Shown one piece after another: positions 5,877-37,951 of a DNA stretch of 64,000 nt (the stretch's first letter is position 1; each line of letters begins with the position of its first letter). Both the position numbers and the translations under genes were made by a program. Origin of the DNA: an uncultured Actinomycetes bacterium (GTDB taxonomy: Bacteria > Actinomycetota > Thermoleophilia > RBG-16-64-13); the NCBI GenBank assembly GCA_963829545.1, contig CAWHIX010000008.1, positions 127,324 through 191,323 on the forward strand. Reading direction: 5' to 3'. The notes under the pieces are model-generated. The model saw only the letters and a list, made by a program, of their open reading frames with translations, was not told the origin of the DNA and made no database searches.

Positions 5877-5886
5877 GGAGAGACTC

Positions 5887-6839: not shown

Positions 6840-6843
6840 CAAG

Positions 6844-8937: not shown

Positions 8938-8996
8938 GCATGGTCCACGCGGGCGATACCACGAGCGGAAGCGGCGCCAGGGCGCGGCACGGCTAC

Positions 8997-10859: not shown

Positions 10860-10890
10860 TGCATACAACTCGACCATACGGAGCCGACTG

Positions 10891-12597: not shown

Positions 12598-12637
12598 GAC
12601 CGACGGTCTCGCCGAGCTGGAGAAGGAGGTATCTCGC

Positions 12638-14474: not shown

Positions 14475-14563
14475 ATTCTATGTGCTGAAATATAGTTTGC
14501 CGATGACCAACGACGAGCGACGGCAGCCGGCAGGCGGCCGTCGCCCATCCAGGGGGTGAACGT

Positions 14564-17173: not shown

Positions 17174-17174
17174 C

Positions 17175-18302: not shown

Positions 18303-18318
18303 ACAAGGGGCGGACACG

Positions 18319-20907
18319 GTGGAAAAGACGGTATTGAAGGCCCTGGGTCAGTGCTCTTTCACCCGGAACGGAGATCCGGCGTCCATCGACGTGAAGGACG
18401 GCAGGATACTGCGCATCCGGCCCCTCCACTTCGAGGACAAATACACCAAGAAAGAGCTCAAGCCGTGGAGACTCGAGAAGGACGGAAAGGTACTCGATCT
18501 CGCGCTCAAGAGCTACCTGGCCCCCTACATGCTCGGCTACAAGAAGCGCGTCTACTCGCCCAACCGGATCCTCTATCCCCTCATCAGAGAAGACTGGGAT
18601 CCAAACGGGGAGCGCAACGTCGAGAACCGGGGCAAGAGCAAGTACAGGCGCATCTCCTGGGACGAGGCGACCACCCTCATCGCCGGCGAGATCAAGCGGG
18701 TACGCGAGACCTACGGACCCTATGCCGTTCTCTGCCACGGTGACGGCCACGGCGAGACCAAGTGCGTGCACGGTCCCCATTCGTGCCAGATGCTGCTGAT
18801 GGAGAAGGTGGGCGGCTATACGCAGGCCGTGCGCAACGCCGACAGCTGGGAGGGCTGGTACTGGGGCGCCGAGCACGTGTGGGGAGAGGGCATCCAGGGT
18901 CACCCCATGCCGGCCGACAACCTGCTCAACGACATCACCCAGCACACGCAGATGCTGGTCGCCATCGGCTGCGACTTGGAGACCACGCCTTGGGGCTTCG
19001 GCGGCCAGTTCCCCAGCAACGTCTGCTACTTCTGGTCCGATCTGGGGATCAAGCAGATCTCCATCGCCCCCGACCTCAACTACTACGCCGGCGTCCACGC
19101 CGACAAGTGGATCCCCATCCTGCCCAACACCGACGCCGCCCTGCAACTCGCCATCGCCTACACCTGGATCAAGGAGGGCATCTACGACAAGGAGTACGTC
19201 GCCACCCACGTGGTCGGTTTCGAGACCTTCCGCGCGTACGTCATGGGCGAAGAAGACGGCGTGCCGAAGTCGCCGGAATGGGCGGCCGAGAAGACGGGCG
19301 TCTCCGAATGGACCATCAAGGCGCTGGCCCGCCAGTGGGCGGAACAGATCACCTCGACGCTGCACTACTACGGCGGCTCGTACATCCGCGGCCCCTTCGC
19401 GCACGAGCCGGCGCGGCTGGAGTGCGTCCTCATGGGCATGCAGGGACTGGGCAAGCCGGGTCGCCACGTCTACGCCAAGATGGGCGACGGACTGTCCCAG
19501 GGCGACCTACCCAGGCCGACCGTCGCGCTCCAGCTGGGCATCATCCGCAGCCAGGTGTGGAGCGGTCGTGCCCTGCTCGAACTCACGCCCCAGATCATCC
19601 CCAAGACCCAGCTTCACCAGGCCATCCTCGACGGTTCGGTGAGCTCCTGGGGGAGCACGTCGCTCTACGCGCACATCGAAGATCAGTTCAAGAAGTACAC
19701 CTACCCCATCCCCGAGGAAGAGGGCGGGAGCGAGGTGCACATGATGTGGATGGACAACCCCTGCCGGACCACCTGCTGGAACAACAGCATGGAGTCCATC
19801 CAGGCCTACCGCAGCCCCAAGCTGGAGTGCATCGTCGTGCAGCACCCCTGGCTGGAGAACGACACCGTCTTCGCCGACATCATCCTGCCCATCAACACCA
19901 AGTTCGAAGAGGAAGACTTCGCCCAGATCTCGAGCGCGTCCCCGCTCAAGGGCATTGCCTACGAGAAGAAGGCCATCGAGCCTCTCGGCGAATCGCTGAG
20001 CGACTACGAGGCCGTCGGTGAGGTGGCCAAGAAGATGGGTCTCTACGAGGAGTACACCTCCGGCATGACCGTGCCTGAGAAGATCAAGTGGGCCTACGAG
20101 GTGTGCGGACTCAAGGACAACCTCACCTGGGAGGAGTTCCAGGACAAGGAGTACTACTACATACCCACCGAGGACGACTGGGAGAAGTACCCGGCCGGCA
20201 TGCGGCTCTTCTACGAGGATCCCGAGGCCAATCCGCTGATCACTCCCAGCGGCAAGCTCGAGTTCTACTCGCAGCGTCTGGCCGACCACTTCCCCGACGA
20301 CGAGGAACGTCCTCCCTATCCCAAGTGGATCGAGAAGGGGCCCAGCCACGACGAGCGCCTGTCCAGCGAGAGGGCTGAGAAGTACCCCTTCCTCTTGGTC
20401 AGCAACCACGCCCGCTGGAGGACCCACGCCGAGAACGACGACATCACCTGGCAGAGGGAGATCCGCACCTGCAAGATCAGGGGTTACGACGGCTACCAGT
20501 ACGAACCGGTCTGGATCCATCCGGAAGACGCGGCCTCCAGAGGTATCAAGGACGGGGATCTCGTCAAGCTCTTGAACGAGCGGGGCACGGTGTTGGGTGC
20601 CGCTCTGGTGTGGGAACGCATCATGCCCGGCGTGGTCTACCAGGACCACGGGGCTCGGGCGGATCTCATCAGCACCGAGGCCGGCAAGTCCATCGATCGG
20701 GGTGGGGCCAACAACCTCATCTCCCCGGCCAACGGCACCTCCCAGAACTGCTGGGGCATGGCCACGAGCGGCTTCCTGGTAGACGTGCAGAAGGTCAGCA
20801 TGGCCGAGATGGAGGAGTGGCGTCAGAAGTATCCCGATGCCTTCACGCGGGAGTACTCGCCGGCCGCGGGTCTGCGCTTCACGAGCTGGATCAAGGGAGA
20901 GGAGTAG
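18319..20907 (+). CDS. Pyrogallol-phloroglucinol transhydroxylase-like molybdoenzyme large subunit, module 2 (intact).
   Basis: 862 aa, paralogous to 14564..17173 (ELKPWRLEKDGK, YRRISWDEATTLIAGEIKRVRETYG, DSWEGWYWG). Confidence 0.85.
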   Translation: MEKTVLKALGQCSFTRNGDPASIDVKDGRILRIRPLHFEDKYTKKELKPWRLEKDGKVLDLALKSYLAPYMLGYKKRVYSPNRILYPLIREDWDPNGERNVENRGKSKYRRISWDEATTLIAGEIKRVRETYGPYAVLCHGDGHGETKCVHGPHSCQMLLMEKVGGYTQAVRNADSWEGWYWGAEHVWGEGIQGHPMPADNLLNDITQHTQMLVAIGCDLETTPWGFGGQFPSNVCYFWSDLGIKQISIAPDLNYYAGVHADKWIPILPNTDAALQLAIAYTWIKEGIYDKEYVATHVVGFETFRAYVMGEEDGVPKSPEWAAEKTGVSEWTIKALARQWAEQITSTLHYYGGSYIRGPFAHEPARLECVLMGMQGLGKPGRHVYAKMGDGLSQGDLPRPTVALQLGIIRSQVWSGRALLELTPQIIPKTQLHQAILDGSVSSWGSTSLYAHIEDQFKKYTYPIPEEEGGSEVHMMWMDNPCRTTCWNNSMESIQAYRSPKLECIVVQHPWLENDTVFADIILPINTKFEEEDFAQISSASPLKGIAYEKKAIEPLGESLSDYEAVGEVAKKMGLYEEYTSGMTVPEKIKWAYEVCGLKDNLTWEEFQDKEYYYIPTEDDWEKYPAGMRLFYEDPEANPLITPSGKLEFYSQRLADHFPDDEERPPYPKWIEKGPSHDERLSSERAEKYPFLLVSNHARWRTHAENDDITWQREIRTCKIRGYDGYQYEPVWIHPEDAASRGIKDGDLVKLLNERGTVLGAALVWERIMPGVVYQDHGARADLISTEAGKSIDRGGANNLISPANGTSQNCWGMATSGFLVDVQKVSMAEMEEWRQKYPDAFTREYSPAAGLRFTSWIKGEE

Positions 20908-20909
20908 CC

Positions 20910-21737
20910 GTGGCCGGGAAGGTGTTTGTCATCGATATAGCCCGCTGCAACGGTTGCTACTGCTGCCAGCTTTCCTGCAAAGACGAGCACGTGGGCAACG
21001 ACTGGACGCCCTATGCCAAGCCGCAGCCCGACACCGGGCAGTTTTGGCTCAAGCTGAACGAGTTCGTGCGGGGCACGGTACCCAAGGTGAAGCTCCACTA
21101 TATGGGCGTGCCCTGCCAGCACTGCGACCAGGCTCCCTGCCTGGAGTCCTGCCCTGTCGAGGGCGCCATCTACAAGCGCGACGACGGCCTGGTCATCATC
21201 GACCCGCAGAAATGTACCGGCTGCAGAGAGTGCCTGCTCTCCTGCCCGTACGACGCCCTGTTCTTCAACGACGACCTGAACATCGCCCAGAAGTGCACCG
21301 GTTGCGCCCATCTGCTCGACAAGGACTGGAAGGTCCCCCGCTGCGTGGATTCCTGCCCGACAGGGGCGATGAAGTTCGGGGACGAAGCGGAGTTCGCCGA
21401 AGAGATCGCCAGAGCCACTCTGCTCGGGCCCGCCGGCGAGACCAAGCCTCGCGTCTACTACCTCAACGTCCCCAAGCGCTTCGTCGGAGGGCTCGTGTAC
21501 GACCCGGTGGAGAAGGAGATCGTGCGGGGGGCCCGCTGCACTCTGGTGGACGCGGAGACCGGCGAGCAGCGGATCGTGGAGACCGATGGCTTCGGCGACT
21601 TCTGGTTCAAGGATCTGGAGGAGAGGACGTACTCGCTCACTATCGAAGCGGAGGGCTTCGCTCCCGTGCAGTACCCGTCGCTGGACACCAGCGACGACAT
21701 CAACCTGGGTGAGATCGCCCTCAGCCGCCCGACATGA
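20910..21737 (+). CDS. Transhydroxylase-like small ferredoxin-type subunit, module 2 (intact).
   Basis: GTG start 3 nt after the stop of the large subunit. VFVIDIARCNGCYCCQLSCKDEH and further CxxCxxC(x)3CP motifs. C-terminal beta-sandwich region (GDFWFKDL...DINLGEIAL). Confidence 0.85.
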   Translation: MAGKVFVIDIARCNGCYCCQLSCKDEHVGNDWTPYAKPQPDTGQFWLKLNEFVRGTVPKVKLHYMGVPCQHCDQAPCLESCPVEGAIYKRDDGLVIIDPQKCTGCRECLLSCPYDALFFNDDLNIAQKCTGCAHLLDKDWKVPRCVDSCPTGAMKFGDEAEFAEEIARATLLGPAGETKPRVYYLNVPKRFVGGLVYDPVEKEIVRGARCTLVDAETGEQRIVETDGFGDFWFKDLEERTYSLTIEAEGFAPVQYPSLDTSDDINLGEIALSRPT

Positions 21738-21954
21738 ACGGGATGACCATCACGTGGTCGCCGTCCTGCAGACGATGGTGAAGCCGGACGTAGACCCCGT
21801 TGACGAGGATCGCTTCGGTGTCGCCGGGAACGTGGAGGATCTCGAGCAGATCGTCCAGGGTCATGCCGTCTACGAGCGGCACGCAAACAGTCGGACGACC
21901 CTCCCTGGCCGGGAAGGTCTCCACGGTGACCGTGCTCTGTCTTTCGGCGTTCAT
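21721..21954 (-). CDS. MoaD/ThiS-family beta-grasp sulfur-carrier-like protein (about 77 aa) on the opposite strand.
   Basis: Ends ...LQDGDHVMVIPFMSGG (canonical C-terminal Gly-Gly). It overlaps the 3' end of the preceding small-subunit gene by 17 nt. The longer ORF (93 aa, start 22002) is the alternative. Confidence 0.6.
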   Translation of the reverse strand: MNAERQSTVTVETFPAREGRPTVCVPLVDGMTLDDLLEILHVPGDTEAILVNGVYVRLHHRLQDGDHVMVIPFMSGG

Positions 21955-22025
21955 GCCTGCCAGTTTACTCGCTGTGGGCCGTGCATGTGGCAAAGAGTCC
22001 ACGTCTAGTGGAGGGTTAGACTAAC

Positions 22026-24311
22026 ATGGGCGTCGAAGAGAAGAAGATCGTCTGCTGGGCGTCGCCGGGCTGCATCCATCAGTGCGGACTCATCGCCACC
22101 GTGAAGGACGGCGAACTGGTCGGCCTACGGGGCAACCCGGACTATCCCACCCCCAATCACGGCTGCGGCGACCGCATGCCTCACCACGCCAAGTGGCTGT
22201 ATAGCTCGGAGCAGCTTCTCTATCCGCTGAAGAGAAAGGGCGAGAGGGGCGAGAACCAATGGGAACGCGTCTCCTGGGATCAGGCCCTGGATGAGATAGC
22301 GACTAAGCTCGTCGACCTCAAGCAGGAGTACGGCGCCGAGACCCTCGCCGTCCAGGAGGGGACCTATCGCAACGATCACTACGGCCTGCGCGCCCGCTTC
22401 CTGCATCTCTTCGAAAACCCCATGAACATCGGCTGCGCCGGCACCATCTGCCGCTGCAACACTATCGCCCTCAACTACGCGCTCCTGGGCATGACCAACT
22501 CCAGACCGAAGCTGCCCAACCTCAAGTGTCTGGTCATCGAGGGCTGCAACCTCAGCGACACGGCCCCGCTCGATTTCCAGCGGCTCAAGAAACGCATGGC
22601 GGAAGGCGACCTCAAGCTCATCGTCATCGATCCCCGGCGCACCGAGGCGGGCAGGCTCGCCGACATCTGGGTGCAGTTGCGTCCGGGCACCGACACGGCT
22701 CTCTTCATGGCCTGGATCAATGTGATCATCGAGGAGGGTCTGTACGACAGGTCTTTCGTCGAGCAGTGGACCTTCGGCTTCGACGAGTTGCGCGCCCGGG
22801 CCGCCGAGTACACCCCCGAGAGGGTCGCGGAGATCACCTGGGTCTCCGCGGATGTCATCCGGGAATCGGCGCGCATGTACGCTACCAATTGGCCGGCGGG
22901 CTTCCACTGGGGAAGCGCCACCGACATGCTGGGGCGCAACTCCATCAGGGTCGAGCAGGCAAGGATCTGCCTGCGGGCCATCACGGGCAACCTGGCCATC
23001 GGCGGCGGGGAGGTGATCGTCGGGCCCGGGCCCATCATCGGCGGCACCATCGGCGTGCGCGATTCCATGCTCGCCCTGCCCGAGAAGGTCAGCCCCGAGC
23101 AGCGGAAGAAACAGCTCGGCGCCGATAGGTTCAAGCTTCTCGGGTGGCCGGGCTACGAGGCCATGGGCAAGTATCACGAGGAGACCTACGGCGTGCCCTT
23201 CCCCACGGCGGCCCACAACTTCGTGGCGGTGCAGCCTCTCATCTGGAAGGCGGTCCTCGAGGAAGACCCCTATCCGGTGAAGGCCATGATCACCTGGGGC
23301 AGCAACGTGCTCCTCAACGGGGGAGACGTCAAGACCATCTACAAGGCGCTCAAGAGTCCCAACCTGGAGTTGCACGTGGTGCTGGAGCACTTCATGACGC
23401 CCACGGCACTCCTGGCCGATTACGTGCTTCCCATAGCGAGCAAGCTCGAAAAGCCCATGTGCGCCACCCACGAGGACTTCGCACCCAACATCGCCTGCGG
23501 CGAGGCGGCGGTGGAGCCGCGGGGCGAGCGCCGCGGCGACTTCTTCGTGTGGAAGGGGCTTGCCGACCGCCTGGGCTTCGGCGAGTACTTTCCCTGGGCG
23601 ACGGAGGAGGAGTTGGCCGACTATCGCCTGGCTCCTCTGGGCCGGACTTTCAAGGAAGTCGCCACCCAGGAGTACTTCGTGCGTAGCGACGAGCCCTGGA
23701 CCTACGACACCATCAACCCCAGGACGGGCAAGCGGACCGGGTTCGCCACTCCGTCGGGCAAGGTGGAACTCTACTCCAACGTGCTGGAGCAGCTGGGCTA
23801 CGACCCCCTGCCCTTCTACGAGGAACCCCCGGAGAGCCCCATCAGCACCCCGGAGGTGGCCGTGGAGTACCCGTACATACTCATCACGGGCGGCAACTTC
23901 CGGCCCATGTTCCACTCCGAGAACCGGCAACTGGGTGTCGGCACCCGCGAGCAGTACCCCGACCCCATCATGGACATCCACCCGGACACCGCCCGAGAGC
24001 ACGGCATCGAGGAGGGCGACTGGGTGTTCGTCGAGACCCGCAAAGGCGTGATCCGGCAGCGGGCCAAGCTCACGGACGAGATCGACCCACGGGTGGTCAA
24101 CGTGCAGAGCCACTGGTGGTTCCCGGAGCAGCCGGCTCGAGAGCCGTGGCTGCATGGTCTTTGGGAGTCGAACTGCAACGTGCTCACTGCCGCGGACGAC
24201 CCGGATACCTTCGACCCGGTGACCGGCGGTTGGCCGCTGCGTGCGCTCCTGTGCAAGGTCTACAAGGCGGAGACCGTCGGTGGGCGGACTCCATCGCCCC
24301 GAAGTACGTGA
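22026..24311 (+). CDS. Cytoplasmic molybdo/tungstopterin oxidoreductase of the DMSO-reductase superfamily, acetylene-hydratase-like clade (tentative).
   Basis: 761 aa. N-terminal Cys motif VCWASPGCIHQCG...HGCGD ([4Fe-4S]) and no Tat signal. Blocks YPLKRKGERGENQWERVSWDQALDEIA, LKSPNLELHVVLEHFMTPTALLADYVLP and the C-terminus PLRALLCKVYKAE resemble what I remember of acetylene hydratase. Confidence 0.8.
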   Translation: MGVEEKKIVCWASPGCIHQCGLIATVKDGELVGLRGNPDYPTPNHGCGDRMPHHAKWLYSSEQLLYPLKRKGERGENQWERVSWDQALDEIATKLVDLKQEYGAETLAVQEGTYRNDHYGLRARFLHLFENPMNIGCAGTICRCNTIALNYALLGMTNSRPKLPNLKCLVIEGCNLSDTAPLDFQRLKKRMAEGDLKLIVIDPRRTEAGRLADIWVQLRPGTDTALFMAWINVIIEEGLYDRSFVEQWTFGFDELRARAAEYTPERVAEITWVSADVIRESARMYATNWPAGFHWGSATDMLGRNSIRVEQARICLRAITGNLAIGGGEVIVGPGPIIGGTIGVRDSMLALPEKVSPEQRKKQLGADRFKLLGWPGYEAMGKYHEETYGVPFPTAAHNFVAVQPLIWKAVLEEDPYPVKAMITWGSNVLLNGGDVKTIYKALKSPNLELHVVLEHFMTPTALLADYVLPIASKLEKPMCATHEDFAPNIACGEAAVEPRGERRGDFFVWKGLADRLGFGEYFPWATEEELADYRLAPLGRTFKEVATQEYFVRSDEPWTYDTINPRTGKRTGFATPSGKVELYSNVLEQLGYDPLPFYEEPPESPISTPEVAVEYPYILITGGNFRPMFHSENRQLGVGTREQYPDPIMDIHPDTAREHGIEEGDWVFVETRKGVIRQRAKLTDEIDPRVVNVQSHWWFPEQPAREPWLHGLWESNCNVLTAADDPDTFDPVTGGWPLRALLCKVYKAETVGGRTPSPRST

Positions 24312-24352
24312 AGCGTTCTGGGGGCGAGAGCGCCGCAGAGAAGGAGAGGCTC

Positions 24353-27257
24353 ATGTCGAGTGACGGACTTCGTGGCATCGAGCCGGCGGGTGGTCGGGGA
24401 GAGCAGTCGTTCGTTCACCACCCGCTTATCCCGTACGACCCGAATGTCGCCCTGTATTTCGCCGCCGGCCCCGTGCTGCTCCCCTTCGAGTACACCGGGT
24501 GGCAGGACGAAGTGATGTCGTACAAGCAGTCCTGTTACATCAGAGGTTCTGGCCATGAGCGTGAAGGACCGAGGCTCGACATCGGGGCCGAGCGGCAGGT
24601 CATCCGCGGAACCGGTCTACTCGGGCCCGGAGACTCGGGACCGCCGGCCCTCGTGCACGTCAAGGAAGACAGGATCACGAGGATCAGGCCCCTGAACTAC
24701 GAGCTCGAGTACGACAAGAAGGACTTCAATCTCTGGAAGATGGAGGCGAGGGGAAAGACCTTCGCACCTCCCCTGCGTGCAGTCCTAGGTCCCATCGGTC
24801 AGGCCTACAAGAAGCGCGTGTACTCCAAGAACCGAGTGCGTTATCCGCTCAAGCGGGTGGACTGGGACCCCGAGGGCGCTTCGGGGTCCGACGGTCCCGG
24901 CGGGCGCAACACCCAGAACCGGGGGCGGAGCAAGTACGTGCGCATCGGCTGGGACGAGGCCGCCGAGTTGGTGGCGGCGGAACTGAAGAGGATGAAGGAG
25001 ACCTACGGTCCCGAGGCCGTGCTCTCCCAGTCCGACATGCATGGCGAGACGAAGCACCTCAGTCCCAGCCATGGCTGTGCCAACCGCCTCCTCTCCCTGT
25101 TGGGTGGCTACACCGTCCAGATGCGCAACCTGGACAGCTGGGAAGGGCAGAACTGGGGCGCCAAGCACGTGTGGGGTTGCGAGCCGGTAGGGGAGATGGG
25201 GCCGACGGCCAACCTCTACCCCGACATCGCCGAGCACGGGGAACTGCTCCTCTTCTGGGGTTGCGACCCGGAGACCACCGCCCATCCCATCCAGGGCATG
25301 CTGGCCAGCCGGCTCTGCTACTGGCTCTCGGACGTCGGTCTGAAGTCCGTCTACGTCTGTCCCGACCTCAACTACGGCGCCGCCGTGCATGCGGATAAGT
25401 GGATCCCCGTCCTGCCCAACACCGATGCCGCGCTGCAGCTGGCCATCGCTTACGTGTGGATCACCGAAGGCACCTACGACAAGGACGTACATCGCCACCC
25501 ATTCCTACGGCTTCGACAAGTTCGAGGACTACGTCCTGGGCAAAGAGGACGGCGTGCCCAAGACGCCGGCGTGGGCGTCTGAGAAATGCGGCGTACCGGA
25601 CTTCACCATCAAGGCGCTCGCTCGCGACTGGGCCGATAAGATCACCAGCCTCATCCACGGCAATGCCGGCCCGGGCATAAGAGGCCCTTACTCCACTGAG
25701 CCGGCCCGCCTGGAGGCCATGCTCCTGGGCATGAGCGGACTGGGCAAGCCCGGCGTCCACCAGGCCAAGATGATCGAGTGGTTCCTGTGGCACAAGTGGC
25801 TGCCCTTGCCGTATCAGGGCAAAGTCACGCCCGCCCTGCCCCTGTTCGCCGAGCAGGTGCGCCCGGCAGGAGCAATGACCTTCAAGGACGGCATGATGGG
25901 CACCTACGCGGGTACTCACCCCGAAATGCGGGCCCTGACCGCACCCGCGGCCAATCCGCCTCTCCAAGTCATCCCCAAGTGCCTCATCCACGACGCCATC
26001 CTCGACCCGCCCATCAGCTGGTGGGGCCTGCACGGTTTTCTCGAACCGGTCGCGGAGCAGTTCAAGGAGCACACCTATCCGGCTCCGGGATGCTCGGAGG
26101 TGCACATGATCTGGACCGACTCCCCCTGCTGGATCACCTGCTGGAACGACTCCAACAGCTACATCAAGGCTCTCCAGTCGCCCTCCGTCGAGTGCATCGT
26201 GGCCCAGCATCCCTGGCTGGAGAACGACTGCCTCATGGCGGACATCATCCTGCCGGTAGGGACCCGCTACGAGATGCTCGACATCGGTGAGGACGTGGGT
26301 AGCGGTGTCGTCATGTCCATCTATCTGCAGGATCACTGCGTGAACCCAGTGGGGGAATCGCTGTCCGACTTCGACGTGGTGGCGAAGATCGCCGAGAAGC
26401 TGGGTCTGCTGGAGGATTACACACAGGGCAAGACCATGGAGGAGAAGCAGAGACTGGCCTTCGACGGCTCCGGCGTGGAAGACCTCATCTCCTGGGAGGA
26501 TCTAAGGAGAAGCAATACTTCGTCATCCCCTGCAGCGACGACGTGAAGGACCAGCCGCCCGGCCTGCGCGATTTCGCCGACGACCCGGCAAGGCCAGCCC
26601 TCTGAGCACCCCCACCGGTCTGCTGGAGTACTCGTCGAGCGCTCTGGAGGAGCACTTCCCCGACGACCCGGAGCGGCCGCCGGTGGCGCACTGGATCGAG
26701 AAGGGCGAGAGTCACGACGAGCGGCGCAGCAGCGAGCGGGCTGCGGAGTATCCGCTGCTCTGCATGTCGAACCACCCTCGCTGGCGCATGCACGCCCAGG
26801 GCGACGACATCACCTGGACCCGCGAAATACCGACGATGAAGATCACGGGAGCGGACGGTTATCAGTACGAGCCGGTGTGGCTCAACACCGCCGAGGCGGA
26901 GCTGCGGGGCATCGCTCAGGGCGATATCGTCAAGATCTACAACGAACGGGGCATCGTCCTGGGCGGCGCCTTCGTCACCGAACGGCTCATGCCCGGCGTG
27001 GCCTACATGGACCACGGAGCCAGGTGGGACCCCATCATCCCCGGCAAGCTGGACCGGGGGGAGCCATCAACACCATCACGCCGCACAAGGTCACCTCCAA
27101 GAGGGCGACCGGCATGGTGGTGAGCGGGTTCCTGGTCGAGGTGGCCAAGGTGAGCGACGAGGAGATGGCCGGCTGGCGCCGGGACTACCCGGAGGCCTTC
27201 GACAGAGACTACGACGCTCGTGACGGGCGTGTCCCTGTCCGGCTGGCTTCAGGAATA
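24353..27257 (+). pseudogene. Transhydroxylase-like large subunit, module 3. It has an unusual N-terminal extension of about 75 aa and at least 4 apparent frameshifts.
   Basis: Ribosome-binding site AAGGAGAGG before the ATG. After the extension the protein aligns with modules 1 and 2 (LDIGAERQVIRGTG.., WKMEARGKTF, VRIGWDEAAELVAAELKRMKETYG). The frame breaks at about 25490, about 26510, about 27060 and about 27200. The true end is probably ..SGWLQE* at 27257. Confidence 0.7.
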
Positions 27258-27267
27258 AGGAGGAGAG

Positions 27268-28084
27268 ATGGCCAAGAGCATTCGTCATAGACGTGGGACG
27301 CTGCTGCGGCTGCTACAACTGCCAGCTCGCCTGCAAGGACGAGCACGTCGACAACGACTGGACTCCCTACGCCAAGCCGCAGCCGGACACGGGGCAGTTC
27401 TGGCTGAAGATAGAAGAGAACGTGTGCGGCACCGTCCCCAAGGTGCGGATGCATTACATCCCCCGGCTCTGCAACCACTGCGCGAACGCACCCTGCATCG
27501 ACTCGTGCCGGGATGCTGCTATCACGCGGCGCGATGACGGGCTGGTGATCATCGAACCGGAGAAGTGCACGGGGTGTGAGGCCTGCGTGACGGCTTGCCC
27601 GTACGAAGCCATCTATTTCAACGACGAACTCGCCCTCGCGCAGAAGTGCACAGGCTGCGCGCATTTGCTGGACAACGGCTTCAAACTGCCCCGTTGTGTC
27701 GAATCCTGCCCCACGGATGCTATACGCTTTGGCGAGGAAGAAGACCTGCAGGAGCTCATCGCCGGTGCCGTCGTCCTCAAGCCGGAGACGGGCAGCCGGC
27801 CGCGCGTCTACTACCGGAACATACCCGGCAAGTTCATCAGCGGCACGGTGTTCGACCCGGTCGAGCGGGAGGTCGTCATCGGAGGGCGCTGCCTGCTGAC
27901 CTCGGGTGGCAAGGTGGTCGAGACCTTCACCGATGCCTACGGCGACTTCTGGTTCAACGACCTGGCGGTGGGCAGGTACGACGTGAGTATCGAGGCCGAC
28001 GGGTTCACGCCCAGGTACTTCTCCGCTCTCGATACCGCCAAGGACGTCAACCTGGGCGAGATACCGCTCACTCGGAAATCCTGA
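27268..28084 (+). CDS. Transhydroxylase-like small ferredoxin-type subunit, module 3 (frameshift right after the start codon, or GTG start at 27293).
   Basis: Ribosome-binding site AAGGAGGAGAG then ATG. MAKS.. is followed in the +1 frame by AFVIDVGRCCGCYNCQLACKDEH... The rest of the gene is intact (263 aa ORF from 27293) with four Cys clusters and C-terminal GDFWFNDL..DVNLGEIPL. Confidence 0.75.
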
Positions 28085-28104
28085 GGGGCTGGGGAGCAGC
28101 TCAC

Positions 28105-30862
28105 ATGGACATCGGCGCGGACAAGCAGGTCATCCGGGGCTCGGGCCTCATCGGATCGGGAGATTCCGGTCCCCCCACCCTCGTGGACGTCAAGGACGGC
28201 AGGATCACGAGGATCAGGCCCCTCGACTACGAGTCGAAGTACGACAAGAAGGACTTCAACGCCTGGAAGATGGAGGCGAAGGGAAAGACGCTCGATCCTC
28301 CCCTGCGCGCCTCGCTGGGTCCCATCGGCCAGGCCTACAAGAAGCGGGTCTACTCCAAGAACCGGGTGCGCTATCCGCTCAAGCGCGTGGACTGGGACCC
28401 GGGAGGGGCGCCGGGGTCCGTCGGCCCCGGCGGGCGAAACACCCAGAACCGGGGCACGAGCAAGTACGTGCGCATCTCCTGGGACGAGGCCGCCGAGTTG
28501 GTGGCGGCCGAGTTGCGGCGCATGAAGCAAGACCTACGGTCCCGAGGCCGTGCTCTCCCAGGCCGACATGCACGGAGAGACGCAAGCACCTCAGCCCCAG
28601 CCACGGCTGCGCCAACCGGCTGCTCTCGCTGCTGGGCGGCTACACCATCCAGATGCGCAACCTGGACAGCTGGGAAGGCCAGAACTGGGGCGCCAAGCAC
28701 GTGTGGGGCTGCGAGCCGGTGGGGGAGATGATGCCGGCCGCCAACCTCTACCCCGACATCGCCGAGAACGGGGAGCTGTTGCTGTTCTGGGGCTGCGACC
28801 CAGAGACCACGTCCGCACGCCATCCAGGGCCAGTTCGCGAGCAACCTGTGCTACTGGCTCTCCGAGGTCGGCCTCAAGTCCGTCTACGTCTGCCCCGACC
28901 TCAACTACGGCGCCGCGGTTCATGCCGACAAGTGGATCCCCATCCTTCCCAACACCGACGCCGCGCTGCAGCTCGCCATCGCTTACGTGTGGATCACCGA
29001 AGGCACCTACGACAAGGAGTACATCGCCACCCACTCCTACGGCTTCGACAAGTTCGAGGACTACGTCCTCGGCAAAGAGGACGGCGTGCCCAAGACGCCC
29101 GCGTGGGCCTCGGAGAAGTGCGGCGTCCCCGACTTCACCATCAAGGCGCTGGCCCGCGACTGGGCGAAGAAGACCACCAGCCTCATCCACGGCAACGGCG
29201 GGCCCGGCATCAGAGGGCCGTTCTCCTCCGAGCCGGCCCGGCTCGAAGCCATGCTCCTGGGCATGCAGCGGCCTGGGCAAACCCGGCGTCCACCAGGCCA
29301 AGATGCTCGAATGGTGGATCTGGGGCGAGTGGTTTCCCATCCCCTATCAGGGCAAGATCAGGCCCAACCTGGCCGGCTTCTCCGAGCAGTGCCGCCCGGT
29401 CGACTGCATGGACCCGACGCGGATGATCCCGCCCCTCTACTTGGGCGCCCATCCGGAGATGCTGGAACTGACCAAGCTCACCGACCAGCCTCCACTCGCA
29501 GGCCATCCCCAAGTGCCTGATCCACGACGCCATCCTCAACCCGCCCATCAGCTGGTGGGGCCTGCACGGCTTCCATGGAGCCGGCAGAGGAGCAGTTCAC
29601 GCAGCACACCTATCCGGCCCCGGGGCTGCTCGGAGATCCACATGATCTGGACCGACTCGCCCTGCTGGATCACCTGCTGGAACGACTCCAACACCTACAT
29701 CCAGGCCCTGCAAAGTCCCTCGATCGAGTGCATCGTGGCCCAGCATCCCTGGCTGGAGAACGACTGCCTCATGGCCGACATCATCCTTCCGGTCAGCACG
29801 AGGTTCGAGATGCTGGACATCGGCAACGACCTGGGCAGCGGCGTGCTTCACCTCCGTCTTCCTGGAGGAGCCACTGCATCGACCCCGTGGGCGAGTCGCT
29901 CTGCGACTTCGACGTCGTGGCCAAGATCGCCGAGAAGCTGGGGCTGTGGGAGGAGTATACTCAGCGGCAAGACCATGGAGGAGAAGCAGAAGCTCGCCTT
30001 CGATGCCTCGGGCATGGACGAGCTGGTCATCCTGGGAGGAGCTGCAAGAAGAAGCAGTACTTCGTCATGCCCTGCAGCGACGAGGTCAAGGACCAGCCGC
30101 CCGGCCTCAGCCCGTTCGCGCAACGACCCGAAGAACAATCCGCTGACCACGCCCACCGGCCTCCTCGAGTATTCCTCGAGCGCCCTGGAGAAGCACTTCC
30201 CCGACGATCCCGAGCGACCGCCTGTGGCTCACTGGATCGAGAAGAGCGAGAGCCACGACGAGCGCCTGAGCAGCGAGCGGACCGAGCAGTATCCGCTCCT
30301 CTGCATGTCGAACCATCCGCGGTGGCGCATGCACGCCCAGGGCGACGACATCACCTGGACGCAGAGAGGTTCCCGACCATGAAGGTCAAGGGTCCCGACG
30401 GCTATCTCTACGAACCGGTGTGGCTCAACCCCGCGGAGGCGGACTCCCGGGGCATCGCGCACGGCGACATCGTGAAGATCTTCAACGAGCGGGGCATCGT
30501 GCTGGGCGGCGCCTACGTCACGGAGCGGCTCATGCCCGGGTGGCCTACATGGATCACGGGGCCAGGTGGGACCCGATCATCCCCGGCAAGCTGGACCGCG
30601 GGGGGGCGATCAACACCATCACACCGCACAAGGTCACGTCCAAGAACGCCACGGGCATGGTCGTGAGCGGGTTCCTGGTCGAGGTGGCAGAAGGTCGACC
30701 GACGAGGAGATGGCCGGCTGGCGCCGGGACTACCCGGAGGCGTTCAGCCGGGACTACGACCTGGCGACGGGCGTGTCGCTGTCGGGCTGGCTGGAGCAAT
30801 CAGGCGCGGCGCTGCCCAGGCGGACCCGCAGAAGGAGTGAGACACCACATGTACACGTGTAA
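28105..30862 (+). pseudogene. Transhydroxylase-like large subunit, module 4. It is a recent duplicate of module 3, heavily disrupted with at least 7 apparent frameshifts.
   Basis: MDIGADKQVIRGSGLIGSGDSGPPTLVDVKDGRITRIRPL... is about 90% identical at the nucleotide level to module 3. An example stretch is gtcctgcccaacaccgatgccgcgctgcagctggccatcgcttacgtgtggatcaccgaaggcacctacgacaag, which occurs in both copies. The reading frame jumps between at least six partial ORFs (27595.., 28550.., 28653.., 28987.., 29575.., 30420..). Confidence 0.7.
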
Positions 30863-32897
30863 ATACCCGCATCTCTTCGCGCCCATCCGCCTGGGCGGAG
30901 CCGTCTTCGCCAACCGTCTCTTCTCCGCTCCCATGGGCTACGAGTACCTGTCGTCCAGGAACTACCCCCTGGACGAGACCATCGCCTTCTACGAGCGCCG
31001 CGCGGTGGGGGGCGCGGGCGCAGTGAGTGTGGGCTCTGCAGTGGCGGACAGCAGACGGGGTTGCATCGGGCTCAGCAACACCTATCTCGACGACCCGACC
31101 GCGCTGCCCCCTATCTACCGTCTGGCGTCGGCCATCAACCGGCACGGAGCCGTGGCCGCGATCGAGCTGCAGCACTCCGGGGCCAACTCCTATCATTCGG
31201 CGGCGCAGGGCAACCAGATCTACGGGGCCGTCGACGGGGAGAACGCTCTGGGCCAGTTCGTCCCGGCCATGCCGGCCGAGATCATCGAAGAGACCATCGA
31301 GGCCTACGGCGACGCGGCGGCCTTCGCCAAGTTCTGCGGCTTCGGCCTGGTGACCGTTCACGCCGGTCACGGCTGGTTGCTCAACCAGTTCCTCGACCCC
31401 AACGTGAACGATCGCAAGGACGAGTGGGGTGGCGGCCGAGAGAACCGCTGCCGCTTCCTGCTCCGTATCGTGGAGCGCATCAAGCAGAAATGTGGTTGCG
31501 GATTCCCCGTCGACGTCCGCATGAGTGGGTCGATGTGCCACGAAAGCGGATACGGCATCGACGAGGGCATCGCTATCGCCAAGCAACTCGACGGTAAGGT
31601 GGACCTCATCCACGTGTCGGCGGGCAGCCACGAGATCCCCGAGGTCTTCACGGTCACGCATCCCAGCATGTTCATGCCGGATGGGCCCAATGTGGTGTTC
31701 GCGGCTGAGATCAAGAAGCACGTCCAGACTCCGGTGGCGGCCGTGGGTGCCCTTGGCGACCCCGAACTCATGGAGGAGATCATCGCCTCCGGCCAGGCGG
31801 ACGTGGTGTACGCCGCCCGAGCCCTCATGGCCGACCCCGACCTGCCCCGGAAGGCCCGCGCCGGGCAGGATGAAGAGATCAGGCCCTGCATCCGTTGCTT
31901 CGAGTGCTTCGCCGGCATCACGACCAAGCGCCAGTACCGGTGCGCTGTGAACCCGGAAATAGGTTTCGAAGAGGAAAGCCGGCACGCTCTGCCGACGGCG
32001 AAGCCGAAGCGGGTCCTGGTCGTGGGTGGGGGAGTGGCCGGGCATGCAGGCCGCCCTCACCGCTGCCGAGCGGGGGCATGAGGTGATCCTGTGCGAGAAG
32101 TCCGACCGCCTGGGCGGTGTGCTCCGGTGCGAGGAGAAGGTGCCGTTCAAGAGGCTTCTGTCCCAGTATCTGGACCAGCAGGCGGGGATGATCAGGCGGG
32201 CGCCCATCGACGTCCGGCTCGGCACCTCAGTCACGCCCGAACTGGCGGAAGCCGTCGAGGCCGACGTCGTCCTGGCAGCCCTGGGCGCCCGTCCCTGCGT
32301 TCCCGGAATCCCGGGGATCCACGGCCCCAACGTCCTCGGGGCTGAAGAGGCCTACCTGTCGCCGGAGCGGACCGGCGATGGGGGCGACAGCGTCGTCGTC
32401 CTGGGCGGAGGACTGGTGGGCATCGAGTTGGCCGTCTTCCTCGCCGGTCTGGGGCGCGACGTGACCATCATGGAGATGATGGAGACTCTCAGCGACGGAG
32501 GCAACCCCGTTCAAGGCCTCGCCCTGATGAAGGAGATCAAGCGCTTGGGAATCAAGGTCTCCACCTCTACCAGAGCTTCAGAAGTCGACGAAGAAGGGTG
32601 TCATAGGGGAGTACGTGGGGAGCGCCTATACGCTGCCGCCATGCCGCACGGTGCAACAGGCGGTGCTGCAGTCGAACAGCTTCGGCAGGGCCGTGCGCGC
32701 CGACATCGAGGTGGGGAGCAAGACGCTGTTCGCCGCCGATACCGTCGTCTACGCGACGGGGCAACAGCCGCTCCAGGACGAAGCGGACGCGTCTGCGCTT
32801 CTGCGCACCCGAGTTCTATCAGATCGGGGACTGCTGGAGACCGAGGAACATGGTGGAGGCCACGCGCATGGCCTTTGCCGTCGCGCGCGACCTGTGA
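30849..32897 (+). pseudogene. Second OYE-family enoate reductase with FAD/NAD(P) domain, with at least 3 apparent frameshifts.
   Basis: MYTCKYPHLFAPIRLGGAVFANRLFSAPMGYE... is the OYE N-terminus. HAGHGWLLNQFLDP is the active-site region. CIRCFECFAG is a Cys cluster. The dinucleotide fold VLVVGGG[P]AGMQAALTAAERGHEVILCEK is broken by a 1-nt indel near 32040. Further breaks lie at about 32600 and 32820. It ends ..MAFAVARDL* at about 32897. Confidence 0.7.
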
Positions 32898-32924
32898 GCG
32901 ACCAAGGAGGAGGGGAGGATGTCA

Positions 32925-33872
32925 TGAGTTCGTCAGAATATGAGAGGTTCGCGGTTCGCTGGCCGGAGCCGCAGGACGGGTCTCTCGGGGTCGGGACGGG
33001 GCAGGGATCCGCCGTCACCCTTCTGAGTGACGCGCAGGTGCCGGGGGCCGGCCATCACGTCCGCCTCGCCTGGATCCGTGGCATCCCGGAGGCCGGGCCC
33101 GGGCAGGTCGAGCAGGTTCTCGACCACGACCAACTGCTCCTGCACGTGGGCATGGACCATACGACGCCGCAGGATCTGGGCGCCACCGTCCGCCTCTACC
33201 TCGGCGGTCAGCCCGTGGTGTTCAACACCACGACCGCGGTCTTCATCCCCAAGGGCACCCCCTACGGCCCCTTCACTTGGGAGGAGTTCCGCCGGCCGTA
33301 CGTGCAGCTCTCGCTGGTGTTCGGGTCCGGGGAGAGCCCGGCTCCGAAGGCCGCCGAAGATGCCGCTGCTGGCCGTGATGGCGCCATCCCACGCAAGAGG
33401 GAGGTCTTCGACTACGAGCAGTACGTGGTCCGCAGCCCCATGCGAGAGGCGGGACCGGAGTTCGTGGAGGGCCGGCAGAACCCCACCATGACCTACCTCA
33501 GCCGCACCCAGGTCAATGCCGTGAACAACTATCTCGAGTTTGGCTGGATATGGGACGTGCCCCGGCCATCCATCCCCAAGATGCGCCACGACAACTTCGA
33601 CGAGATCGTGCTCCACATCGGCAGCGACCCCGACCATCCCGAAGACCTGGGCGGGATACTCCAGTTCGGCATCGGTGACGAGCTGCTCGAGTTCGACACC
33701 ACCCATTGCGCCTACATCCCCAGGCGGGTGGATCACGGTCCCCTCATCTGGAAAGAAGTGCGCCGGCCCCTCATCGAGATGGCTCTCATGCTGGGCGCCG
33801 GCGATCTATGCCGAGGGATGGGAGAACAGCTTCTTCGACCTCCCCGATGGAGAGCGCCGCGGCGCCAGGTAA
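32925..33872 (+). CDS. Tandem double-cupin protein (two family-A cupin domains fused), with a possible frameshift near 33800.
   Basis: The first half (..VFIPKGTPYGPFTWEEF..) is a degenerate cupin lacking the His ligands. The second half (MRHDNFDEIVLHIGSDPDHPEDLGG...IPRRVDHGPLIWKE..MLGAG) aligns with 4924..5397. The end is ambiguous between 33872 and 33946. Confidence 0.5.
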
Positions 33873-33887
33873 CCACCCGCAGGAAGG

Positions 33888-34371
33888 ATGTCCACCATGC
33901 CCGAATCCGATCACAGCAAGTACATCATCACCGAGCGCAGACGTGACTCCCGCGACGCGGTCATGCCGCCCGGGGTCGATCCGGCCTCGATCACCGACAC
34001 CAAGTCTCATTTCAAGCTGATGAGCCTGGACGACCACGTGCTCAAGGGTTCCCTCTACACCGAGGTGGTGTGGATGTGGCCCGGCGGGAGCGACGTCTAC
34101 CCGGAGACGGCCGAACCCGCGCCCCACGCCCACGAGTACGACGAAGTGCTGGGCTTCTTCGGGAGCGACTTCGACGCCCCCTACGATCTGGGCGGCGAGA
34201 TCGAGTTCTGGTTGGAGGACGAGAAGTTCCTTGCTCACCAAGAGCTGCCTCATCTTCGTCCCCAAGGGCATGTACCACTGCCCTCTGGTGATCCGGGAGG
34301 TAAGAAGGCCCATCTTCCACTTCTCATCCGGCCCGGGAGGCACCTACGTGCAGGAGACGGCAGAGGCGTGA
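33888..34371 (+). CDS. Family-A cupin, fourth locus copy, with one apparent frameshift near 34235.
   Basis: HAHEYDEVLGFFGSDFDAPYDLGGEIEFWLEDEKF is followed in the +1 frame by LLTKSCLIFVPKGMYHCPLVIREVRRPIFHFSSGPGG..*. Both cupin motifs are present. Confidence 0.5.
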
Positions 34372-34422
34372 GCGAACACGGCCCGGAAGCCGGGCGCCCG
34401 AGCGACGCCGGCAGGGAGCCGA

Positions 34423-35226
34423 TGAGCAGGCCCATCACCGACCTTGCGCGGGTGATGGACGTCTCGGGTCGCAAGGTGATCGTCACGGGCGGGAGCCGCG
34501 GTATCGGGTGGGGTATCTGCCAGGCATTTGCGCAGCGGGGCGCCGACGTGGCCATCCTGGACATCGACGTGGCGGCCGGTGAGGCTGCCGCCCAGGAGCT
34601 TCGCGAGAGCGGGGGCGACCACGTGTTCGTGGAGTGCGACGTCACCGACAGGGGCATGGTCGAACGTGCCGTCGGCAGCGGTCGGCCGCCCGTTTCGGCC
34701 ACATCGACGTGCTGGTGAACAACGCCGGCATCGCCGCCATCAAGCCCTTCCTCGACATGGACGACGACCTTCCCGAGTATCACCGGGTGATCGCCGTGAA
34801 CCTGCACGGCACCGTGTACATGACGCATGCCGTCGCCCGGGTCATGCGCGCCGCCGAGCGGGGGCGGCCTCGATCATCAACATCTCGTCCATCGGCGGAG
34901 CTCGTTGCTCCGGATCGAAGGATCTGCCCCAGGTGGGCTACGTGGCCTCGAAGGCGGCGGTGAACCACCTGACGGCGTTCCTGGGCCATCGAGTTCGCCG
35001 AGCACGACATCCGCGTGAACTGCATCATGCCCGGACCGACGCGCTCCAAGCTGGACGAGCAACTGACGCCGGAGTGCCGGGCGAGGATGATGCAGGGCCT
35101 CCTCGACCGGCGCTACGGCGAGCCGCTCGAGATCGGTGCGCTCTGCGTGTTCTTCGCCTCAGCGGAGGGGGCCCATCTGAACGGCGTGGTCATGCCGCAC
35201 GACGGCGGTTTCCTATGCATCAACTA
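34423..35226 (+). pseudogene. SDR-family oxidoreductase split across 3 or 4 reading frames.
   Basis: KVIVTGGSRGIGWGI (frame a); IDVLVNNAGIA...NLHGTVYMTHA (frame b); IINISSIGG...YVASKAAVNHLT (frame c); IRVNCIMPGPT...NGVVMPHDGGFL* (frame d). Confidence 0.6.
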
Positions 35227-35347
35227 GGCAGTTCGATCGGACCAGGATCGAGCGGACGCGAGGTTCCTGGGTGTACGTGTACAGTAGGCGGCATCGAAGC
35301 GAAGGCGACAGCAGGCAACATCGAGCAAAGCGGGGGTCGACATCCAC

Positions 35348-36731
35348 ATGAGCACCAACACCAGCAATGATTCAAAGCCCGGGATCCCACAGGATCCGAT
35401 GTTCTCCGGGTGGGAGCAGCTGGACTGGAAGGAACGCCGCGAGCGCCGCTTCGAGCGCTGGAAGAGTGCCCCGGACGTCCAGTTTGCGAGCGAGTCGGTC
35501 AAGCGCGACTACCAAGAGCGCGCCCAGAACCTCATCGATGCCATCACCCTCAAGAAGCCGGCCCGCGTGCCGACCACTGCCTCGGTCGGCTACTACGTGG
35601 GCAAGTACAGCGGGCTCAGCAAGAAGGAGTCCATGTACGATTACGAGAAGTCGGCGGCGGCTCTCGTCAAGTATCACGAGGACTTTCGCCCCGATTTCCA
35701 GACCTCGGCGGTGGCTCCGGCCAAGGTCTTCGAGAAGCTCGGCCTCGAGCTCGTCGACTGGCCGGGCAGGGGCCTGGCGGACGACACGCCCTGGCAGTAT
35801 CTCGAGACGGAGTACATGCGTGAGGACGAGTACGACGCCCTCATCGCCGATCCGGAGGTCTACTTCCGGCGCAGCCTGCTGCCCCGCTTCGGGTCGGCTT
35901 TCGCTCCCCTGGCCGGGCCGGCGCCCTTTACCGACATGATGGAAGCCACCACCATGCTCTTCAGCATCCTGCCCTTCGCCGATCCGGCGGTGGTTGAGGG
36001 AGTGCAGAGGCTGGCCGACGCCGCTCGGGAGTGCCTTGCCTACCTGACAGCCATGGGGGCCGCCGGCGCGGATGCGGCCGGGCGATTGGGCATCCCGTCT
36101 TCGTTCGGGGGTCTCGCCAAAGCTCCCTACGACATCCTGGCCGACACCCTGCGGGGCACGAAGGGCATAATGGTCGACCGCTTCCGCCGGCCGGAGAAGA
36201 TCCTCGAAGCCTCCGAGCGGCTGGTGCCCATCGTGGTCGAGTGGTGCACCCGCCAAGCCTCGCGGCCGGGTGGACCGCTCATCATCTTCGTTCTGCACAA
36301 GGGCGCCGACAGCTTCATGTCCGATGCCGACTTCCGCACCTTCTACTGGCCGACGCTGAAGGCGGTCATGAAAGGCGTCATCGAACAGGGCATCGTGCCC
36401 ACCATGTTCGCGGAGGGGGGCTACAACAAGAGGCTGGAAGTGATCGCCGACCCCGAACTGCCCACCGGCAGCGTGCTGTGGCTGTTCGACCAGACCGACA
36501 TGGCGCGCGGCCAAGCGGGCGCTGGGCGGCCACTCCTGCATCGCCGGCAACGTCCCCACGGCGCTACTGGCCTTGAGCACCGTCGACGAGGTGAAGGCCT
36601 ACACCACCGACCTGCTCGACACCTGCGCCAGGGACGGCGGCTTCATGCTCGAGAACGGTGCCGTCCTGGACGATGCGAAGCCCGAGAACCTCAAGGCCAT
36701 GCTGGAGACGGGTCAGAACTGGCGCGGCTGA
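35348..36731 (+). CDS. Uroporphyrinogen-decarboxylase (UroD/MtaA/CmuA)-fold family protein, one apparent frameshift near 36515.
   Basis: About 460 aa. The C-terminal region in the shifted frame (GGHSCIAGNVPTALL..GT.DEVKAYTTDLLDTCARDGGFMLENG..ENLKAML) is the typical UroD-like ending. This fold is used by corrinoid-dependent methyltransferases and decarboxylases. Confidence 0.55.
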
Positions 36732-36829
36732 TGACCTGCGAACTCAGGCGCGGTTTCTTCGGCCGCGGTTTCTGTTGATCGACAACAAACTAGCGCGCAT
36801 CGGCGCCCTGGTGAGAACGGAGGCACGAC

Positions 36830-37939: not shown

Positions 37940-37951
37940 GAGGCACGAGAA

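Follow-up and report, generated by a model that had tools for sequence, protein, structure and literature searches.

Gene content of the locus

The window analysed, a stretch of 64,000 nucleotides, includes a conserved and very probably intact block of five genes (M5, L3, S3, L4 and ER2). The block lies within an island for anaerobic aromatic/polyphenol catabolism in an uncultured Actinomycetota MAG. The features are:

22026..24311, plus strand: M5, a different molybdopterin oxidoreductase of 761 aa, intact (Pfam PF00384 and PF01568)
24353..24554, plus strand: ORF remnant 5' of L3, without a Pfam match and not part of L3
24555..27258, plus strand: L3, AthL-like large-subunit gene with 6 frame breaks (from frameshift-aware alignment and the L085 start codon)
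27268..28084, plus strand: S3, BthL-like Fe-S small-subunit gene with one +1 insertion at about 27277
28105..~30803, plus strand: L4, AthL-like large-subunit gene with 17-18 indels
30849..32897, plus strand: ER2, OYE/FAD enoate-reductase-like gene, 681 aa expected, with three +1 frame breaks (Pfam PF00724)
24555..36510, plus strand: stretch rich in frame breaks, with at least 35 frame-breaking indels (the GC3 frame plot included)

M5 is 84% identical to its orthologue in L003, with zero frameshifts, and is the conserved neighbour 5' of the large-subunit (L) genes, as M5-L synteny was identified in L003, L007, L010 and the sister contig L085. Comparison with homologues and with L085 places the true start of L3 at ATG 24555 rather than at ATG 24353. 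The ORF at 24353-24554 is in frame with the first L3 segment by chance. A counterpart was not identified in L4 or in the L genes of L001 and L003; the 5' part is conserved ahead of the L gene in L085. A GcvT/LigM-like N-terminal remnant was considered for this ORF and dropped, as Pfam gives no support.

S3 follows L3, as the initial annotation proposed in pairing large subunit 3 with small subunit 3, and is 82% identical to its L001 orthologue (L001_S). The single +1 insertion throws the S3 ATG out of frame with the remaining ORF. Small-subunit homology was not detected in 30700-31700, and no small-subunit gene lies between L4 and ER2, in agreement with the earlier view that the second unit lacks a small subunit. 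ER2, which lies outside the L3/L4 repeat, does begin with an ATG at 30849, but the reported overlap of this ATG with the L4 stop is a by-product of an extra C at 30801. The extra base destroys the natural TAG, and the ORF then extends to the TAA at 30860-30862; L085 reads CAATAG at this place. ER2 is 81% identical to the L001 gene (three +1 frameshifts, zero stops), an intact orthologue of 681 aa that also has Pyr_redox_2 and FAD domains.

Predicted function of the large and small subunits

L3 and L4 are predicted, from sequence, to be large subunits of AthL/BthL-type, hydroxytransferase-like Mo enzymes. After frame correction, L3 aligns over its full length to PDB 4v4c_A (residues 19-859, E 8e-140), and S3 matches 4v4c_B over 4-264 of 270 residues (E 4e-53). 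The AthL-type domain set (AhtL-like N-terminal, molybdopterin oxidoreductase and MopB dinucleotide-binding domains) is present, in L1 and L2 by direct Pfam match; for frame-broken genes the Pfam scan was run on stop-free ORF pieces. Close homologues of L3 and L4 carry PF21423, PF00384 and PF01568. The NLDSWEG motif of L3 aligns with NPDSWEG of 4v4c_A, and L4 has the same motif as L3; the serine of the D-S-W motif is reported to be the Mo ligand in the 2004 structure. An adjoining small-subunit gene with Fe-S motifs and a C-terminal beta-sandwich is provided by S3 (its orthologue L001_S has Fer4_11 and CarboxypepD_reg domains), and L4 has no such gene of its own. L4 would partner with S3 or with another small subunit.

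The large-then-small gene order is that of AthL/BthL of Pelobacter acidigallici (DMSO-reductase superfamily; PDB 4V4C/4V4D/4V4E), but the sequences of L3 and L4 are clearly diverged from the solved enzyme. Because reference residues ~403-470 are highly variable between the paralogues, the substrate is probably different from that of AthL/BthL. Gene organization also differs, in that one small-subunit gene is flanked by two large-subunit genes and the second of these (L4) is joined in one operon to a gene of enoate-reductase type. ER2 shares PF00724 with the 2-enoate reductase / 2,4-dienoyl-CoA reductase family (OYE plus FAD/NAD(P) domains); unlike in that family at large, it is conserved immediately 3' of an AthL-like gene.

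Age of the duplication and synteny

The initial annotation described a young duplication of a 3.7-kb module, with long near-identical stretches (about 90%) shared by the two units and one small subunit lost. The repeat is in fact limited to the 2.7-kb L ORF (24578-27260 versus 28108-30804; 84.3% identity over 2707 nt, 34 gap positions, E = 0), with similarity running from the start codon to the stop. The two copies diverge from each other (83.6% nt, 82.7-85.3% aa) as much as from the genes of other organisms: nucleotide identities of L3 and L4 to L001 are 82.6% and 83.3%, and amino acid identity between the two is lower than that of either copy to P0001, an intact homologue from another organism. 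Segments in which L3 and L4 reach 0.89-0.94 identity are mostly those most conserved relative to the unrelated contig L001 as well (0.85-0.93), the 3' end being the exception. L3 and L4 were sisters in none of 100 bootstrap NJ trees. Thus, the copies are not each other's closest relatives, nor is the repeated unit an L+S pair from which one S was later deleted, as would be expected of a recent tandem duplication.

Synteny with related genomes, which had been suggested as a check, also argues against recent loss of a small subunit. Among other Actinomycetota MAGs, the order L-S-L-ER is kept in L014 and L-S-L in L006, and L-ER without an intervening S is conserved in L007, L009, L010 and L085. 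Given the 84% identity, the non-sister placement and the conserved gene orders, we conclude that L3 and L4 are ancient paralogues, that the duplication is old and that no small subunit was recently lost after L4. The L4-type gene directly 5' of ER is the conserved core (L007, L009, L010, L014, L085), and the variable unit is L3-S3. L085 lacks both L3-S3 and L2-S2.

Sister strains differ by gain or loss of L-S units, via recombination between paralogues.

Frame breaks and coding integrity

Both large-subunit genes are frame-broken, as originally noted, but the counts given (at least 4 in L3 and at least 7 in L4) were too low. L3 has six breaks (~24573 -1, 25486 +1, 26504 -1, 26588 +2, 27060 -1 and 27216 +1), with 5-6 frameshifts in frameshift-aware alignments to P0001, P0002 and P0007. 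For L4 the DP counts 16 breaks and alignment 17-18, almost all of them +1. Single-base insertions account for 15-16, and the remainder comprises a deletion at 30540 and one or two insertions of 2 bases. Breaks beyond L3 and L4 affect at least nine genes, including S3, ER2, SDR1, SDR2, AOR2, S1 and URO-D. Those of ER2 are at about 31995/32040, 32587-32599 and 32792. Further downstream are breaks in a cupin-like ORF (~34260), in SDR2 (34455-35270, at least three) and in URO-D (36506), and isolated breaks occur upstream in SDR1 (12207), AOR2 (~13060) and S1 (~17497). The density is uneven, with 6 per kb in L4 and zero in L1, L2 and M5 (7.5 kb).

Insertions outnumber deletions about five to one in L3 and L4 (~20:4) and 3:0 in ER2. 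In 17 of 21 cases the extra base in the window is unlike both neighbours and outside base runs. A, C, G and T are inserted about equally often, in a sequence of 65% GC. A GAAG-context motif for the insertions was tried and fails across sites. A long frame-1 tblastn HSP in L4, for which selenocysteine or in-frame stops were considered, crosses shifted segments at 36% identity and was set aside. Blastx against ORFs of the relatives' loci was noisy (antisense ORFs, high-GC DNA) and was used for corroboration only.

After frame correction, neither gene contains a stop codon. L4 has zero codon indels and 86% aa identity to P0001; L3 has at most two codon indels, both N-terminal, and 85% aa identity to P0001, P0002 and P0007. 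The dN/dS of L3 or L4 versus external homologues is 0.10-0.15, compared to 0.08-0.14 for pairs of intact genes, and the L4 terminal branch has dN of ~0.02 and dS of 0.14-0.19. L3 and L4 are under purifying selection, and dN/dS gives no sign of relaxed constraint.

Comparison with sister contigs and other assemblies

The closest relatives are Nanopore-only Microflora Danica assemblies. The L1 protein of the window is identical to P0121, and an exact 63-mer taken from L3 has no match in genome_contigs. L085 is 94.5% identical to the window over L4 and ER2 and lacks nearly all of the window insertions, including the extra ER2 bases at 31995, 32599 and 32792. It has its own frame breaks (13+3) at other positions. 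Only two breaks here coincide, at 29498 (the sole case in L4) and at reference residue 397 of ER2; the S1 break at ~17497 is common to the window and L085 and is not found in L084. In a 13-kb three-way alignment (96-97% identical), private 1-nt insertions number 30 in L085, 16 in L084 and one in the window, and they are patchy and in different places in each. Sixteen of those private to L085 fall within 16.0-18.2 kb of the window. Since a genome with two private insertions per kb would not be viable, these insertions must be errors.

Similar +1 breaks occur in other MFD long-read MAG loci (six in L014, seven in the ER of L006); the loci of the short-read MAGs L009 and L010, and of the long-read L007, are intact. 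The MFD-LR MAGs were produced from Nanopore reads only, with metaFlye and one round of Medaka, and low-coverage errors were reported by the authors (PMC12313526). Near-finished R10.4 consensus requires ~40x coverage (PMC9262707), and frameshifts in long-read assemblies split otherwise conserved genes (PMC9262707, PMC12007338, PMC12313526). The breaks described here are private to one assembly, patchy and missing from the two short-read MAGs examined (L009 and L010). However, the literature stresses homopolymer indels, and the inserted base here is mostly unlike either neighbour.

Origin of the frame breaks

The frame breaks of L3 and L4 are very probably residual consensus errors of a long-read metagenome, mostly spurious single-base insertions, rather than mutations of the organism. 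Indels that are private, spread over unrelated genes and different in sibling assemblies, as observed, are what such errors would produce. The errors would come in patches, of which ~24.5-36.5 kb of the contig would be one, and may result from Nanopore-only metaFlye plus Medaka assembly where coverage was locally low or strains were mixed, the site being structurally polymorphic. Several observations fit this less well. Insertions outside homopolymers differ from the textbook Nanopore error, the best match available for L3 (86% aa) is not a close relative, one break each in L4, ER2 and S1 coincides with L085, and the uneven density would agree equally with a genuinely dead L4 over a low error background.

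The initial annotation offered consensus errors in a collapsed repeat as one of two readings. Errors are supported, but confinement to the repeat is not. Polishing of one paralogue with reads of the other, through L3/L4 collapse or cross-mapping, would explain why the two paralogues are the most heavily affected genes, and L084 ends at window position 24287, just 5' of L3, a sign of assembly trouble there. We consider this unlikely. Copies that differ by 16% are easily separated by long reads, L1 and L2, which are more distant paralogues, have no breaks, and S3, ER2, SDR2 and URO-D are affected without having a paralogue in the repeat. The inserted bases are not those of the other copy and are absent in 7/7 homologues in an 8-sequence nucleotide alignment. 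Collapse alone is not the cause, because breaks also occur in single-copy neighbours to ~36.5 kb and, isolated, at 12-17.5 kb.

The other reading offered was genuine pseudogenisation of redundant paralogues, extended here to an L3-S3-L4-ER2-SDR2 catabolic block that is no longer of use to this strain and is being eroded by real indels. The clustering of the breaks in one contiguous, functionally linked block is in keeping with this, and the structural polymorphism of sister strains (L085 lacks L3-S3 and L2-S2) fits a dispensable accessory pathway. We nevertheless regard it as improbable. Bacterial pseudogenes show deletion bias and indels in slippage contexts, the opposite of the insertion bias and non-repeat context found here. 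Nonsense mutations, deletions of codon size or larger, dN/dS near 1 and a non-synonymous excess on the L4 branch are all missing, and L085 shares almost none of the indels and has a different set. The same signature recurs across sister assemblies, at densities that a viable genome could not carry.

Decay of L4 alone, as a real pseudogene redundant to L3 over a background of assembly error, is more doubtful again. The indel density of L4 is threefold that of its neighbours, but L4 is of the conserved type found before ER, with L3-S3 as the variable unit, its branch dN is 0.02 and L085 lacks all its indels except that at 29498. Comparable local densities are reached in sister contigs, as in L085 over 16.0-18.2 kb of the window.

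We give very little credence to real insertions in a structurally polymorphic catabolic island of a soil actinobacterium under very rapid, insertion-biased, non-slippage mutagenesis, acting independently in each sister strain and leaving no trace in dN/dS. Programmed recoding, by ribosomal frameshifting or transcriptional slippage that restores the frames, has nothing in its favour beyond a corrected path without stop codons and is effectively refuted, as the ~24 sites share no slippery motif and are unconserved in homologues and in the sister strain.

Implications

Paralogues with many frameshifts in long-read MAG contigs should not be counted as pseudogenes. Read literally, the breaks described here would wrongly suggest that an aromatic-degradation pathway is decaying and that the duplication is recent. 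The finding is an ordinary one, with little biological consequence. What is real, and mildly useful, is an island in an uncultured Actinomycetota with up to four AthL-like large subunits and a fifth Mo enzyme, an island architecture (L-S-L-ER or L-ER) that is conserved, and the gain or loss of L-S units at the strain level.

Frame breaks in the large-subunit genes

The window has 64% GC, and the + strand carries most genes of its first 39 kb. Gene order was derived from Pfam and homology. Breaks outside L3 and L4 were checked via intact orthologues on related contigs or split Pfam domains.

Genes of the first 39 kb, with frame breaks outside L3 and L4
3-1985, glycyl-radical enzyme
2071-2985, its activase
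6757-8934, ER1, enoate-reductase-like
8976-10856, AOR1
about 11.7-12.6 kb, SDR1; break at 12207
about 12.6-14.5 kb, AOR2; break at about 13060
14564-17173, L1, AthL-like large subunit; no break
17175-17997, S1, small subunit; break at about 17497
18319-20907, L2, large subunit; no break
20913-21737, S2, small subunit
22026-24311, M5, a different molybdopterin oxidoreductase; no break
24555-27258, L3, large subunit
27268-28084, S3, small subunit; break at 27277
28105-~30802, L4, large subunit
30849-32897, ER2, enoate-reductase-like; 3 breaks
32.9-34.4 kb, cupin-like ORFs; break at about 34260
34455-35270, SDR2; at least 3 breaks
35363-36728, URO-D-like; break at 36506
36815-37936, Zn-ADH
37940-38758, HpcH aldolase

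A custom frameshift-aware protein-to-DNA alignment to the intact homologues P0001, P0002 and P0007 located 5-6 frame breaks in L3 and 16 in L4, and multi-sequence and pairwise nucleotide alignments gave 17-18 events in L4, including an extra C at 30801; both counts exceed the minima of four and seven first proposed. The frame-corrected genes contain no stop codons, and codon-scale indels are absent from L4 and number at most two, N-terminal, in L3. The corrected proteins are 85-86% identical to P0001, and Nei-Gojobori dN/dS against external homologues is 0.10-0.15 (0.08-0.14 for intact-intact pairs). The dN of the L4 terminal branch is about 0.02, whereas at least 16 real indels would imply a neutral period, which should have added several percent non-synonymous change. 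Genuine bacterial pseudogenes show deletion bias and a slippage context. The pattern here is the opposite: +1 insertions overwhelmingly predominate, 17 of 21 window-extra bases are unlike both adjacent bases, and A, C, G and T are inserted about equally in 65% GC sequence.

The 90% cluster of the L1 protein (P0121) led to two sister contigs, both of ENA metagenome assemblies, for strain-level comparison. L084 matches window 4842-24287 at 95-96%; L085 matches 5350-18303 at 97% and L4 plus ER2 at 94.5%. Nearly all window insertions in L4 and ER2 are absent from L085, which has its own breaks at other positions (13 in L, 3 in ER); the two contigs have no more than one L site (29498) and one ER site in common. 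Over the shared 13 kb, a three-way alignment shows private 1-base insertions in L085 (30), L084 (16) and the window (1), and the clusters lie elsewhere in each contig. A density of two breaks per kb, affecting housekeeping as well as catabolic genes, cannot have a biological origin, and the patch at window 24.5-36.5 kb bears the same signature, so that it is most simply the same artefact. We consider it very probable that the frame breaks arose in assembly. Genuine pseudogenisation, one of two readings in the initial annotation, is not supported, in view of the stop-free corrected frames, the low dN/dS, the breaks in other genes and the differing set in L085. The S1 break at about 17497 (AGC[C]TGCCCC), common to the window and L085 and absent in L084, may be either a true frameshift carried by both strains or a systematic error tied to the sequence context.

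The other reading, consensus or indel errors, is supported, except that the effect is not specific to the repeat. A collapsed L3/L4 repeat explains the errors poorly, since single-copy neighbours are hit too and the inserted bases occur in no homologue, the other copy included. From about window 24287 on, reduced effective coverage or mixed-strain pile-ups would account for locally more frequent consensus errors. MFD isolates L014, L006 and L011 show similar +1 breaks at homologous loci; the locus is intact in L009 and L010 (short-read MAGs) and in L007 (long-read). Microflora Danica long-read MAGs are Nanopore-only, built with metaFlye and polished in a single round of Medaka, and the authors describe problems with errors where coverage is low (PMC12313526); near-finished R10.4 consensus requires about 40x coverage (PMC9262707). 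We infer that the window itself is also a Microflora Danica product. Window 28410-32908, and L085 and L084 generally, carry few-kb patches of 1-base insertions that mostly match neither neighbour and are near-uniform in base, a signature unusual for Nanopore consensus.

Within the population the structure of this locus appears to vary, which may be why the error patch lies here. L2-S2 (window 18303-21723) is exactly missing from L085, in which S1 directly precedes a minus-strand ThiS-like gene, with M5 next in order. Its single L gene (15640-18620), compared with window 24340-24600 and 28105-30803, is L3-like upstream and over the first about 45 nt and L4-like in the remainder (94.5%); L085 lacks S3 and the body of L3. 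By sequence, this hybrid looks like a deletion via L3 x L4 recombination, or a strain-level structural variant. The 46.8-kb L084 terminates at window 24287, immediately before L3, which suggests a break of the assembly graph where the polymorphism begins. L-S units seem to come and go as cassettes between 97%-identical strains.

Age and extent of the L3/L4 duplication

L3 and L4 are indeed homologous and frame-broken, with no small subunit after L4; module size, L3 start and the L4/ER2 overlap need revision. Similarity between 24578-27260 and 28108-30804 (84.3% over 2707 nt, 34 gap positions) is bounded by the start and stop codons, so the repeat is the 2.7-kb large-subunit ORF and does not extend to an L+S module of 3.7 kb. 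By homology, L3 starts with the ATG at 24555, with a -1 break directly behind it; the ATG at 24353, previously taken as the start of the unit, belongs to an unrelated upstream ORF remnant. This remnant (24353-24554, between M5 and L3) has 67 codons in frame with the first L3 segment and matches no Pfam family; L085 also keeps the 5' part of it ahead of its L gene. The apparent run of the L4 ORF into the ER2 ATG at 30849 is due to the extra C at 30801, which abolishes the natural TAG stop.

A codon alignment was anchored on P0001, the L protein encoded on L001, a contig from another organism. In it, L3 and L4 are about as far from each other in nucleotides as from the L gene of L001.

Pairwise identities (nucleotide, amino acid)
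L3-L4: 83.6%, 82.7%
L3-L001: 82.6%, 85.5%
L4-L001: 83.3%, 86.3%

The stretches of about 90% identity that had suggested a young duplication exist, but are mostly family-conserved parts, where identity to L001 is just as high; the 3' end is the exception. In a neighbour-joining tree of 20 large subunits, L4 clusters with the second L gene at L014 and L006, which are L-S-L loci, L3 clusters with the L001 gene, and the two are sisters in 0 of 100 bootstraps. By these comparisons the duplication is old.

No small-subunit homology was found 3' of L4. Synteny with related genomes does not support recent loss: L014 is L-S-L-ER like the window (8.3 kb collinear at 80.6%), L006 is L-S-L, and L007, L009 and L010 are M5-UROD-L-ER, with L directly 5' of ER and the small subunit absent. 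Thus, L4-ER2 without its own small subunit is a conserved arrangement.

Predicted functions

The L genes carry PF21423, PF00384 and PF01568 and are AthL-like. Frame-corrected L3 aligns full-length to 4v4c_A, the large subunit of pyrogallol hydroxytransferase (E 8e-140), and S3 aligns to 4v4c_B, the small subunit of this enzyme (E 4e-53). Both L3 and L4 retain the D-S-W-E-G motif, which we take to be the site of the Mo-ligand serine. L3 and S3 would form an AthL/BthL-like heterodimer; the partner of L4 would probably be S3, or else the product of a different small-subunit gene in the vicinity.

Reference residues about 403-470 (window about 25780-25960 and 29310-29490) are hypervariable among the paralogues: nucleotide identity between L3, L4 and L001 is 57-66% here and 80-94% in other parts; frameshift placement is less certain within this segment. 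The segment may be a loop that sets substrate specificity, and its variability is consistent with differing substrates of the paralogues.

The L and ER genes lie at about 9960-12670 and about 12690-14770 in L007, L009 and L010, and the L014 pair at 11205-15961. The recurrence of an AthL-like L directly upstream of an OYE/FAD enoate-reductase-like gene across several Actinomycetota MAGs may reflect a functional pairing.

Window 3-38758 forms a large anaerobic catabolic island, which includes a MutL-type ATPase and cupins. It holds two enoate reductases, two AORs, two SDRs, four AthL-like L genes and three small subunits, along with M5 (another Mo enzyme), the URO-D-like gene, Zn-ADH and the HpcH aldolase. 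The combination of a glycyl-radical enzyme, aldehyde:ferredoxin oxidoreductases, SDRs, cupins, URO-D-type methyltransferase-like genes and an aldolase points to a role in anaerobic transformation of hydroxylated or methoxylated aromatics.
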